This document shows positions 1 through 59,050 of a DNA stretch of 64,000 bases, piece by piece; the first letter of the stretch is position 1, and the number at the start of each line of letters is the position of its first letter. The position numbers were made by a program, and so were the translations under genes. The stretch is taken from assembly GCF_003334255.1 (NCBI RefSeq), contig NZ_QOWU01000014.1; one strand, written 5' to 3'. Under the pieces are notes generated by a model. The model was given only the letters and a program-made list of their open reading frames with translations. It ran no database searches and was not told the DNA's origin. This stretch comes from Escherichia coli (GTDB lineage: Bacteria > Pseudomonadota > Gammaproteobacteria > Enterobacterales > Enterobacteriaceae).

Positions 1-22
1 AGCTGATAGAAACAGAAGCCAC
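1..22 (-). CDS. insA: IS1 InsA, first 7 codons only (partial, runs out of window)
   Basis: Minus strand from 22 reads GTG GCT TCT GTT TCT ATC AGC (V/M-A-S-V-S-I-S), the InsA N-terminus. Confidence 0.6.
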
Positions 23-77
23 TGGAGCACCTCAAAAACACCATCATACACTAAATCAGTAAGTTGGCAGCATCACC
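1..77 (-). mobile_element. IS1 insertion sequence, terminal ~77 bp with inverted repeat; the element continues upstream of the window
   Basis: Reverse complement of 1..77 reads GGTGATGCTGCCAACTTACTGATTTAGTGTATGATGGTGTTTTTGAGGTGCTCCAGTGGCTTCTGTTTCTATCAGCT, which I recognise as the canonical IS1 end (terminal IR followed by the insA start). Identification is from memory, not a search. Confidence 0.8.
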
Positions 78-208
78 TTGAACGCAAATTCCAGTTAGCT
101 GAGAACATTCATGTTCGTGGTGCTAACCTGGTAAATGGTTTGCTGTATATCGATCTCGAACGCGTGATTCCGGAAGCGAAAAAACCGCGCCGTATCGAAA
201 TCAACTAA
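78..208 (+). pseudogene. ibpA: Small heat-shock protein IbpA, 3' fragment (last ~43 codons), truncated by IS1
   Basis: In-frame translation from 80 gives [42 protein letters not shown] then stop at 206..208. Sequence upstream of 78 does not encode IbpA in any frame. Confidence 0.8.
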
Positions 209-319
209 TTCCCTAAGGCCGCCTGGCGCGGCCTGACATCTCCATGCTCGCCGTCAGGGAGCATATGCGAATCTTCGGATTTGCAGGTACTTACTCGCTT
301 CTTAGAAGGAGAAATGACT

Positions 320-748
320 ATGCGTAACTTCGATTTATCCCCACTGATGCGTCAATGGATCGGTTTTGACAAACTGGCCAACGCACTGCAAAACGCCGGT
401 GAAAGCCAGAGCTTCCCGCCGTACAACATTGAGAAAAGCGACGATAACCACTACCGCATTACCCTTGCGCTGGCAGGTTTCCGTCAGGAAGATTTAGAGA
501 TTCAACTGGAAGGTACGCGCCTGAGCGTAAAAGGCACGCCGGAGCAGCCAAAAGAAGAGAAAAAATGGCTGCATCAAGGGCTTATGAATCAGCCATTTAG
601 CCTGAGCTTTACGCTGGCTGAAAATATGGAAGTCTCTGGCGCAACCTTCGTAAACGGTTTACTGCATATTGATTTAATTCGTAATGAGCCTGAACCCATC
701 GCAGCGCAGCGTATCGCTATCAGCGAACGTCCCGCGTTAAATAGCTAA
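320..748 (+). CDS. ibpB: Small heat-shock protein IbpB
   Basis: ORF 281..748; product from [24 protein letters not shown] matches IbpB. Start chosen at the ATG giving 142 aa. Confidence 0.9.
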
Positions 749-763
749 CTAGCTATTCTCTTT

Positions 764-791
764 GCCCCGCCATTCTGGTGGGGCTTTTTTT
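764..791 (+). terminator. Intrinsic terminator after ibpB
   Basis: GC hairpin gccccgcc-attctg-gtggggc followed by a T run. Confidence 0.6.
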
Positions 792-943
792 GTCTTACTT
801 ACTCAACAATGCGTTAAATTTCGACTGTTTAAGATATTTCGGCACGTTCTTTCCCGTGATAATGTGCGCTATAAGGCAAATCTGCTTCACCGATTCAGCC
901 ATAATCCGTAGCAATTAAAATGTTATCTCAAGAGAAATGGACG

Positions 944-2605
944 ATGAGTGATATAGCATTAACGGTCAGTATTCTGGCTTTGGTGGCAGTCGTCGGTTTG
1001 TTTATCGGCAACGTCAAATTTCGCGGCATAGGATTAGGTATTGGCGGCGTGCTGTTTGGTGGGATCATCGTCGGCCATTTTGTTTCTCAGGCGGGGATGA
1101 CATTAAGTAGCGATATGCTGCATGTTATTCAGGAATTTGGCCTGATCCTGTTCGTTTATACTATCGGGATTCAGGTAGGGCCGGGCTTCTTTGCCTCATT
1201 GCGCGTCTCCGGATTACGCCTCAACCTGTTTGCTGTTCTGATCGTCATCATCGGTGGTCTGGTTACCGCCATCCTGCATAAACTGTTTGATATTCCACTG
1301 CCGGTAGTGCTGGGGATTTTCTCCGGTGCGGTTACCAATACGCCAGCGCTGGGGGCAGGGCAGCAGATTTTGCGCGACCTGGGTACACCAATGGAAATGG
1401 TCGATCAGATGGGGATGAGTTACGCGATGGCGTATCCATTCGGCATTTGCGGGATTTTGTTCACCATGTGGATGTTGCGGGTTATTTTCCGCGTCAATGT
1501 CGAGACAGAAGCTCAGCAGCACGAGTCTTCACGCACCAATGGCGGCGCGCTGATCAAGACTATCAATATTCGCGTTGAGAACCCTAACCTGCATGATTTA
1601 GCCATTAAAGATGTACCGATTCTCAACGGCGACAAAATTATCTGCTCGCGTCTGAAACGCGAAGAAACCCTAAAAGTTCCTTCGCCAGATACCATTATCC
1701 AACTGGGCGATTTGCTGCATCTGGTGGGTCAGCCAGCGGATTTACATAATGCGCAACTGGTGATTGGTCAGGAGGTCGATACTTCGCTGTCCACGAAAGG
1801 CACTGATTTGCGCGTCGAGCGTGTGGTGGTCACCAATGAAAACGTGCTCGGAAAACGTATTCGCGACCTGCACTTTAAAGAACGCTATGACGTTGTTATC
1901 TCGCGCCTGAACCGTGCCGGGGTCGAACTGGTCGCCAGTGGCGATATCAGCCTGCAGTTCGGCGATATCCTCAATCTGGTGGGGCGTCCGTCCGCAATTG
2001 ATGCCGTTGCCAATGTGCTGGGGAATGCGCAGCAAAAACTGCAACAGGTTCAGATGCTGCCAGTGTTTATTGGCATCGGGCTAGGCGTATTGTTAGGTTC
2101 TATTCCCGTCTTTGTGCCAGGATTCCCGGCCGCGTTGAAACTGGGGCTGGCGGGCGGACCGCTGATTATGGCGTTGATCCTCGGGCGTATCGGCAGTATC
2201 GGCAAGCTGTACTGGTTTATGCCGCCAAGCGCCAACCTCGCGCTGCGGGAGCTGGGGATCGTGCTGTTCCTCTCGGTCGTTGGTCTGAAATCTGGTGGGG
2301 ATTTTGTGAATACCCTGGTCAATGGCGAAGGGCTAAGCTGGATTGGTTATGGTGCCCTGATCACCGCCGTTCCGCTGATTACTGTTGGCATTCTGGCGCG
2401 GATGTTAGCCAAAATGAATTACCTGACCATGTGCGGGATGCTGGCAGGTTCCATGACCGATCCTCCGGCGCTGGCGTTTGCTAATAATCTTCATCCAACC
2501 AGCGGTGCGGCGGCGCTCTCTTACGCCACTGTCTATCCGTTGGTAATGTTCCTGCGCATTATCACCCCCCAATTACTGGCGGTGCTCTTCTGGAGTATCG
2601 GTTAA
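944..2605 (+). CDS. yidE: Putative transport protein YidE (AAE-family-like, two TrkA-C domains)
   Basis: ORF 920..2605; protein from [23 protein letters not shown] recognised as YidE. Start at the internal ATG. Confidence 0.85.
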
Positions 2606-3613: not shown

Positions 3614-6934
<3,321 letters not shown>

Positions 6935-13918: not shown

Positions 13919-14026
13919 ATATTTGGACAAAACGCAAACTGTGATCGATACTCAACTATGCACTAAATACGTCAAAATTCGTGCCGAAATTGCGCGTTCT
14001 GCGCGGAACACGTATACTTTCAGTGT

Positions 14027-14101
14027 TGACATAATACAGTGTGCTTTGCGGTTACCAGCCGCAGGCGACTGACGAAACCTCGCTCCGGCGGGGTTTTTTG
14101 T
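14027..14101 (+). ncRNA. istR: IstR-1 antitoxin sRNA (the longer IstR-2 would start ~65 nt upstream)
   Basis: …gttgacataatacagtgtgctttgcggttaccagccgcaggcgactgacgaaacctcgctccggcggggtttttt matches my recollection of IstR ending in its intrinsic terminator. 5' end is approximate. Confidence 0.65.
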
Positions 14102-30264: not shown

Positions 30265-30900
30265 TCTTCTGAATCACCGGGCGAAAAAATATAACTGAGT
30301 TACAAATAAGTACCAGTCGAATGAGTATTGTATTAAGAATTTTTGAGTATCGCTGATACAACCAGAAAGCAATGCTAGCGCAATATTATAGGGCCAGCAA
30401 TTGAGATTATTAGTAAAAGCATGTTAAGAATTAATTACCGAATTTATATATTAATTATAGTAAGGCAATGAGCTATTTTTGATAGTAAAAATAAAACAAG
30501 TTGATTTGATATATTAAATGAACAAATTAATCTTGATGGCAGTCTGATTATTGGTGAAGTTTATAGTCAGTTTTTTTCGCCAGCGGTTAAAGAAATAGAA
30601 TAGTCGTATAAAAAAGGGTGTTCTGGGGCGAGTAAAACAACATCTTCACCTTAATGGCGATACAGTTGGCTGAGAGTCAGCAGGGGGGCAAATCACCTGC
30701 AAATAAACACGGCGCATACTGGCGTGAATATCGCGGATGCGTTCGAGGACAGAAGAACCGACAGGCGGATTCTTCAGCCGCTCATCGTCCATCACAAAAC
30801 CTTAGACCAGGTATTCCTGAAGCCGATTGAATATTGAGCAGTAGAAAATATCTGGATTGACAGTATTACAAGGGGTTGGAGAACGTCAGGAGAGGCATTT

Positions 30901-30995
30901 TGGCGGAAGATCACAGGAGTCGAACCTGCCCGGGACCGCTGGCGGCCCCAACTGGATTTGAAGTCCAGCCGCCTCACCGGAGACGACGATCTTCC
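30901..30995 (-). tRNA. selC: tRNA-Sec (selenocysteine, UCA anticodon)
   Basis: Reverse complement of 30901..30995 is GGAAGATCGTCGTCTCCGGTGAGGCGGCTGGACTTCAAATCCAGTTGGGGCCGCCAGCGGTCCCGGGCAGGTTCGACTCCTGTGATCTTCCGCCA, recognised as E. coli selC. Confidence 0.9.
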
Positions 30996-45165: not shown

Positions 45166-48343
<3,178 letters not shown>

Positions 48344-48633
48344 GGTTCTCTCCCTAAAAATCTGTCTGGCAGGGTAGCGATTTGTGCGCATTGTCACGAT
48401 TGAGATTTTTTAAGGTGAGGGGAAATTGATAACTTGTAGTTATGTGAAATCGCTATTTTCTGTAGCAGAGATGCATTCTTCTGACTTCTTGTCTGAGAAA
48501 ATGCATAAGAAAAAATAGGTTAAAACTGAGGGGGGAAAAGAAAGGTGCAATATTTAGCCATTGTGTTCACTGCACCTGGACCTTGGCTTACGCATCGGGT
48601 GTCTCAATCAACAAAAAGAGTTTTTAGTTTCTG

Positions 48634-49458
48634 CTATTTCTTCTCTGTAATTTTTACACTGTTTTCCAACTGCTTGATGCTGACCTGCGGGGTCGGCAAC
48701 TCCTCAGGCATGGTTCCGCCAAGTTCCTGAATGGTTTGCCTCACCTTGCGACCCACGTCAAAGTGTGTGGTGTTTGCTTGCTGTTTTGAATTCACGCCAT
48801 CCCGCTTGAGTTTTTCTTCTGTTTGGGTAGCTCGAAAGAGATTAGCCGCCAGTTCTGTTGAACCCATATGATCCAGGATCTTCTGATTCTTTTTCAGCCC
48901 CTTCCGCTGATGAATAGCTTTCTGATCTAATCCACCATACAGCCCCCGGTAACCATGATTCTGAAATATGGCGAAATCGATAGCTGTCGCTCCCCCAGCT
49001 TGCTGCGCTGCCTCAACCAATTGTTTGTTATGTTCTTTCAATTCATTTCTCAGAAAAAGACGCTTTTCGTCTTCACGAAGTTGCCTGAAAGCTTCATCGT
49101 CAGCCAGCTCCTGCCGTCGGGTCTGGATAGCAAAATAAGTTTGCCCTGCCGCAATAACCGGTTTCGCAGGGTCGCCGTTTTGTACTACCAGGTAACAGGC
49201 ATAGCGGGAGAGATGAACATCTTCAAGTTCTCGTTGAGCCCCTGAACCTAATACAACCATTTTGGTGGTTTCAACGAAATGGTCAGATGCAGCTTGATTG
49301 CTGGCTTCGCACGCTTGAGTCGCGCGGGCCAGTACCTTTTGAAAATTGCGCCAGTCCCGATAATCCAGTAACGGTGCCAATTCTCTAGCTGACCAAAATT
49401 CTTGCCCTTCAGTGCCATAATGCCGTATTTCTTCAAAAGGTTGATGATGTTCGTTCAT
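48634..49458 (-). CDS. dinD: DNA-damage-inducible protein D
   Basis: ORF 48634..49470 minus; start at MNEHHQPFEEIRHYGTEGQEFW. LexA box lies upstream. Confidence 0.85.
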   Translation of the reverse strand: MNEHHQPFEEIRHYGTEGQEFWSARELAPLLDYRDWRNFQKVLARATQACEASNQAASDHFVETTKMVVLGSGAQRELEDVHLSRYACYLVVQNGDPAKPVIAAGQTYFAIQTRRQELADDEAFRQLREDEKRLFLRNELKEHNKQLVEAAQQAGGATAIDFAIFQNHGYRGLYGGLDQKAIHQRKGLKKNQKILDHMGSTELAANLFRATQTEEKLKRDGVNSKQQANTTHFDVGRKVRQTIQELGGTMPEELPTPQVSIKQLENSVKITEKK

Positions 49459-58679: not shown

Positions 58680-59050
58680 AGTAAATAGCTGACTTATGGA
58701 TGTGCTGGGGATTCTATGTATTTAGCTGTGGCTTTACCATTACTTTTCCCGTTTTTGACTTAAATAGCAATTTACCCGCCAATTCTTGCTGAACATCTAT
58801 ACTTTTTTTGTATTTTTATGCGATTCATTGATTTCTGCTGTACGTGCAGGAAGGAATCGCAGAGCAACAGTGAAAGAATATGGTTGCTAATGATTTTATT
58901 TGATTGATTTCTTTATTGAAAATCAACAATGTGCTTAAAAATCATTCGGGTCGGATTGCCGCGAAAGAAGTGATACACTAGCGCGTCAATATCAGTGCGG
59001 TATCAGTATTCAGGTAGCTGTTGAGCCTGGGGCGGTAGCGTGCTTTTTCT

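Follow-up and report, generated by a model that had tools for sequence, protein, structure and literature searches.

A probable IS1 insertion in the heat-shock gene ibpA of Escherichia coli ECOR-09 and close relatives

The stretch of DNA analyzed in this study, referred to as the window, comprises bases 1-64,000 of QOWU01000014.1, a contig of 98,673 bp in the E. coli draft assembly GCA_003334255.1; contig and window were found to be identical over their initial 10,208 bases. The window opens inside an IS1 element because the draft contig starts there, the assembly having broken in the repeat. This starting point is an assembly effect and has no biological meaning, and the length of the IS1 piece, 77 nt, probably reflects the k-mer of the assembler. 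A preliminary description of the DNA had interpreted positions 1..77 as the inverted repeat of IS1 followed by the first codons of insA. Comparison with IS1 confirmed this, as the reverse complement of the segment matched, at 77 of 77 positions, the left (IRL) end of an IS1A element annotated in E. coli DH5alpha. Read on the minus strand, these 77 bases run GGTGATGCTGCCAACTTACTGAT...GTGGCTTCTGTTTCTATCAGCT. The 23-bp terminal inverted repeat IRL (GGTGATGCTGCCAACTTACTGAT) is located at 55-77 on the minus strand with 0 mismatches and occurs only once in the window, with 0.00 matches expected by chance. In IS1, an element of 768 bp, insA begins about 55 nt inside IRL and is followed by insB', which is expressed via a programmed -1 frameshift. 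The CDS of the annotated IS1A copy starts 55 nt from the end of the element, and the insA start and first codons in the window match this copy. The GTG start codon and the first seven codons plus one base (22..1, minus strand), translating to V(M)ASVSIS, are the entire IS1 coding content of the window; what remains of IS1 falls outside the contig. A consensus scan detected a promoter-like site for insA within this end (CTGCCA-16-TATGAT, 70..43, minus strand). Pattern searches for IRL and IRR revealed no second IS1 end elsewhere in the window and, as expected, no IRR.

Immediately adjacent to the IS1 end, window position 78 corresponds to nt 284 of ibpA, which is the second base of codon 95. 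The segment 78..208 (plus strand) is the 3' remnant of ibpA (nt 284-414) and contains two thirds of codon 95, the codons for residues 96-137 and the stop codon; accordingly, translation of 80-208 yields IbpA residues 96-137 followed by the stop. The earlier assignment of the last ~43 residues of IbpA and of a break near codon 95 is therefore accurate. Positions 78-319 are base-for-base the same as in E. coli K-12 MG1655. By this identity the locus is ibpA, but the gene is disrupted. The ibpA frame is open from position 208 back to position 2, predicting a 68-residue product at the contig edge, and an exact lookup of this product gave a single occurrence, at bases 1-208 of QOWU01000014.1. This product is deposited as WP_250112271.1 (68 aa, "Hsp20 family protein, partial", RefSeq/UniRef). 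It consists of 26 residues read antisense from IS1 and IbpA residues 96-137, and is a chimera that exists only through a gene running off the contig end. WP_140411423.1 (49 aa, ECOR-09) represents the same chimeric artefact with another contig cut. When a full IS1 element is placed upstream, the remnant frame closes four codons beyond the start of the window. The reconstructed frame contains no ATG, GTG or TTG before codon 50, and its first start codon lies 22 residues from the end; the 3' remnant of ibpA is thus probably not translated.

Downstream of the remnant, the window is identical to MG1655 from 209 to 748. It includes the complete ibpB gene (320..748, plus strand, 142 aa), preceded, downstream of ibpA, by the stem-loops of its 5' UTR. 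That ibpB is intact, as proposed before, holds base for base. The GC-rich hairpin noted previously in the ibpA-ibpB spacer (216..234, plus strand; 7 bp, 5-nt loop, no U-tract) is present in the predicted minimum-free-energy fold and has a free energy of -12.8 kcal/mol on its own. It is native spacer sequence and unrelated to the insertion. Three further stem-loops of the ibpB 5' UTR follow at 244..319 (plus strand) in the predicted fold, and this region is likewise intact. In the last of them (294-311), the Shine-Dalgarno sequence AAGGAG (306-311) is predicted to be paired in a manner resembling an RNA thermometer. The ibpB 5' UTR has been described to hold an RNA thermometer through which IbpA represses translation. 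The ibpAB operon ends with a hairpin followed by a T-run that resembles an intrinsic terminator (764..794, plus strand; consensus scan).

To recover the 5' half of ibpA, which lies outside the window, we spliced K-12 ibpA in silico to the right inverted repeat (IRR) of IS1, assuming every length of target duplication between 0 and 14 bp, and derived the product expected in each case. For a 9-bp duplication, a 98-aa product was predicted that consists of IbpA residues 1-97 and one arginine and stops at a TAA inside IRR. This product, predicted first, was then located by exact lookup on four contigs, one in GCA_965136505.1 (CBCRYS010000056.1) and one each in the Logan assemblies ERR271233 (a contig common to 18 samples), SRR10357257 and ERR1948968. 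In these left-junction contigs, ibpA nt 1-292 are joined directly to the IRR of IS1; the junction in the related assemblies reads ...AACT TTGAACGCA|GGTAATGACTCC, with GGTAATGACTCCAACTTATTGAT as the IRR sequence. The right junction in the window reads CATCACC|TTGAACGCA AATTCC, and comparison of the two junctions identified TTGAACGCA as a 9-bp target-site duplication, whose right-hand copy (ibpA nt 284-292) occupies window positions 78..86.

The right junction was present in the same three Logan runs as the left one (ERR271233, SRR10357257 and ERR1948968); the right-junction contig is common to 14 samples as compared to 18 for the left-junction contig. Wherever a lookup of both sides was feasible, namely in these three independent sequencing runs, the two junctions thus occurred together. 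The direct target duplication of about 9 bp expected for IS1 was found in each of them, with TTGAACGCA at both junctions, whereas only the right-hand copy is seen in the assembly of the window. IRL is exact in the window and IRR (GGTAATGACTCCAACTTATTGAT) is exact at the reciprocal junction in three contigs. Extension upstream in other public assemblies with the same allele therefore yielded the 5' part of ibpA and the target-site duplication that the preliminary description had anticipated, here nt 1-292 joined to IRR and the duplication TTGAACGCA, and its reading that IS1 interrupts ibpA near codon 95 is supported by both junctions and the duplication in these relatives. For GCA_003334255.1, the assembly of the window itself, no record of the left junction was found, which may be due to annotation of the truncated gene as a pseudogene without a protein record. 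The identical right junction in the relatives argues strongly for a simple insertion in the genome of the window as well.

Taken as a whole, these data are in all probability best explained by a 768-bp IS1 insertion in ibpA, together with the effects on the ibpA product and on ibpB considered below. In the proposed course of events, ibpA of the ECOR-09 lineage, a phylogroup-A-like E. coli, would have received IS1 by transposition between nt 292 and 293 (target numbering), with duplication of TTGAACGCA. The IRR would then face the 5' part of ibpA, and the IRL its 3' part and ibpB.

We considered whether a larger composite transposon or another IS1-bounded segment rather than a single 768-bp IS1 could reside in ibpA. 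Such a structure would account equally well for a left-hand IRR, a right-hand IRL and a 9-bp duplication, and the assemblies that contain the junctions were all derived from short reads and stop 20-120 nt inside IS1, leaving the interior unseen. We regard it as very improbable, however, since single IS1 insertions are far more common and there was no sign of extra DNA; moreover, related phylogroup-A genomes hold many solitary IS1 copies, with up to ~40 matching places per record. IS1 is also known to promote adjacent deletions. Following the insertion, the genome of the window could therefore have undergone an IS1-mediated adjacent deletion or inversion, so that the DNA to the left of the element would no longer be the 5' part of ibpA, and the missing left-junction record of GCA_003334255.1 would be in line with this. 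The chance of such a rearrangement appears equally slight, as both junctions and the 9-bp duplication were present in three of three runs, one of which agrees with the window at every base over 10 kb (contig ERR271233_191, 10,160 of 10,160 positions, including 3 SNPs relative to MG1655), and as the missing record has the possible trivial cause of pseudogene annotation. A junction created by misassembly or chimera formation, with ibpA intact in the organism, is scarcely conceivable: although no more than 77 nt separate the junction from a contig end, the part of a contig in which assemblers are most prone to error, five or more assemblies or runs of independent origin share it base for base, and the reciprocal junction with the canonical 9-bp duplication was found. 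We therefore retain the single IS1 insertion in ibpA.

A deletion adjacent to a nearby IS1 copy was also tried as an explanation and rejected. The 100% BLAST coverage of positions 1-25,000 on which it was based turned out to be stitched together from unrelated IS1 copies. The borrowed piece came from setC in the case of Ecol_AZ155 and from glvC in that of DH5alpha, and both strains have an intact ibpA.

The right junction was also found in LYBB01000266.1. The LYBB record belongs to strain ECOR09, which has core type R3 according to a paper on LPS core typing. The allele is carried by ECOR-09 and close relatives. A search with window positions 1-400 showed that the junction is absent from all 5,426 complete E. 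coli genomes in RefSeq; the best matches to this query in the complete genomes all start at position 75. In a search of the same 5,426 genomes for ibpA, 5,418 contained one uninterrupted copy, 8 gave no match and none contained a split gene. Naturally disrupted ibpA alleles are therefore rare, and a literature search found no description of IS1 in this gene. The element itself represents an ordinary IS1 insertion, and what is new is only the particular ibpA allele.

A second apparent truncation hotspot, characterized by a 98-aa IbpA ending in ...NFERK, was rejected. Of six contigs inspected, five merely stop at ibpA nt 294-296, and these ends are due to graph branching rather than to an insertion sequence; the sixth contig runs into unrelated sequence. 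On the metagenome-like Logan contig ERR10986719_13606 (401-721), a TAG directly follows ibpA codon 98 and is succeeded by unrelated AT-rich sequence (CTAAGAAAATAGGTATGAATTTAG). Here ibpA may have been disrupted by another event very close to the IS1 site, or the contig may stem from a construct joined there.

With respect to the IbpA protein, the HSP20 domain (Pfam PF00011) spans residues 41-137. The complete alpha-crystallin domain and the C-terminal I-X-I motif that define IbpA are not preserved in the interrupted gene. Judged from the junction, the 5' product would end at residue 97 followed by one arginine and would lack about 40% of the alpha-crystallin domain along with the IEI motif. 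Residues 98-137, among them beta7 and all later strands as well as the IEI oligomerization motif, are predicted to be lost. IbpA variants with a C-terminal deletion or an IEI-to-AEA exchange have been reported to fail both to oligomerize and to repress translation. IbpA represses translation of ibpA, ibpB and rpoH, and deletion of ibpAB raises the levels of DnaK and GroES. With these elements missing from the predicted product, the allele should be null for the chaperone role of IbpA and for translational repression of ibpA, ibpB and rpoH.

A further question concerned the transcription of ibpB. IS1 is strongly polar in both orientations, as known from the classical gal and lac IS1 mutations. 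The preliminary description had proposed that ibpB is cut off from the heat-shock promoter of ibpA, and the intervening IS1 is borne out by the two junctions in the relatives. In the inferred arrangement, the distance between the sigma-32 promoter and ibpB would have grown by 768 bp, or by 777 bp when the duplication is included. Heat-shock transcription initiated by sigma-32 would have to cross IS1, and because of the classical polarity of the element the induction of ibpB should be strongly reduced. Any residual ibpB mRNA would presumably be translated without repression by IbpA. When IS1 was inspected in the relevant direction, only one weak terminator-like site was detected, which is no more than expected by chance.

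We also looked for promoters that might serve ibpB downstream of the insertion. A promoter scan found no sigma-70-like promoter directed toward ibpB within window positions 1-320 or in IS1 read in this direction. Two candidates created by the insertion were rejected. A hybrid or outward promoter was considered, since the end of IS1 carries a TTGGCA hexamer (64-69), but no acceptable -10 hexamer is located 16-18 nt downstream. A new sigma-54 site at the junction (TGGCAG...CTTGA, 65-81) has the wrong spacing and failed the motif scan. The motif scan did recover the reported sigma-54 (-24/-12) site of ibpB, aaccTGGTAAATGGTTTGCTGTatat, at 125..150 (plus strand), inside the ibpA remnant. This sequence has been given as the ibpB promoter at -185..-168 (PMC2831329). 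A later genome-wide study obtained only a background sigma-54 ChIP signal at this site and called the promoter misannotated (PMC4591121). As the insertion is located upstream of the disputed site, the latter is retained. Expression of ibpB could be kept up by this sigma-54-type site or by read-through across IS1.

The allele has counterparts among characterized mutations. It resembles simple insertions of IS1A in its identical terminal sequence, the flanking IRR and IRL and the 9-bp duplication, and the polar gal and lac mutations in that the first gene of an operon is hit and the downstream gene is split from its promoter. A comparable case of an IS1 insertion is lrhA::IS1 (PMC8092126). It differs from the gal, lac and lrhA cases in its target, ibpA, and in that the full element lies beyond the contig end. 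In engineered ibpA and ibpAB deletion mutants of K-12, sigma-32 and heat-shock protein levels are increased and repression via the ibpA and ibpB 5' UTRs is relieved. The predicted loss of IbpA function is shared with such strains (Keio JW3664 and BW25113 ΔibpAB). In contrast to the engineered deletions, the present allele is natural and occurs in a wild-type background, keeps residues 1-97 including R93 and leaves ibpB and its UTR intact; unlike a clean deletion, it adds a 768-bp IS1 that is likely to act as a polar block. There is also a similarity to hybrid or outward promoters formed by IS1, as the end of the element bearing TTGGCA adjoins a promoterless gene segment. Unlike the activating IS1 promoters, it has no usable -10 region and the scan found nothing toward ibpB, so that activation is unsupported.

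ECOR-09 is probably an ibpA mutant, which is relevant to those who use this widely distributed reference strain in studies of stress, protein aggregation or heat shock. The allele parts ibpB from its sigma-32 promoter yet keeps the contested sigma-54 site. A more far-reaching proposal would be that the ECOR-09 lineage is a natural ibpA-null in which sigma-32 and heat-shock proteins are chronically raised and ibpB, if expressed at all, is transcribed only from the sigma-54 site. We consider this combination rather unlikely. If it were true, ECOR-09 would constitute a natural test of whether ibpB possesses a promoter of its own and of whether natural populations can tolerate, or even favor, the loss of IbpA feedback.

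The remainder of the window is closely related to K-12 over most of its length. Positions 75-47,843 align without gaps to MG1655 with 11 SNPs, 6 of them within the first 47.3 kb and 5 within 47,351-47,837. From yicG/dinD onward the identity to K-12 falls to 98.8% and then to 92.8%, the latter value applying to the segment from dinD to waa. The possibility that the strain is a K-12 derivative was rejected on the grounds of the 11 SNPs over 47.8 kb and the diverged dinD-waa segment (92.8%) with its R3-type core genes. The waa region shows an R3-like gene order, and only core genes are present between 44,000 and 64,000. The region around 47,350-49,400 resembles a recombination boundary leading into the R3-type LPS core (waa) cluster.

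The IS1 end had been called the only mobile-element footprint in the window. For insertion sequences this was correct, with no second IS1 end and no gap relative to MG1655. It did not hold for a pseudogene fragment of the RhuM family at 30,661-30,822, adjoining tRNA-Sec (30,901-30,995, minus strand) and also present in K-12. This fragment is an island relic at the selC integration hotspot. There is no island at selC in the window, and setC is uninterrupted, as opposed to Ecol_AZ155, where it contains IS1.

Further observations concern individual loci. A glvC/glvB-like gene for a PTS EIICB protein (3614-5230) forms an intact open reading frame of 538 codons. It has CAG at 4718-4720 (SNP at 4718) as opposed to an amber TAG in MG1655, where the annotation lists the glvC/glvB-like gene as a pseudogene. 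Further downstream, a glvG-like gene seems to contain a frameshift, as in K-12. An Rfam search gave no match within window positions 1-1,000, and the only matches in the window were istR, tRNA-Sec and JUMPstart. The istR match (13,970-14,099) is the sRNA antitoxin of tisB/istR, a type I toxin-antitoxin locus, and the JUMPstart element is located upstream of the waaQ operon (59,004-59,042); both are expected core features.
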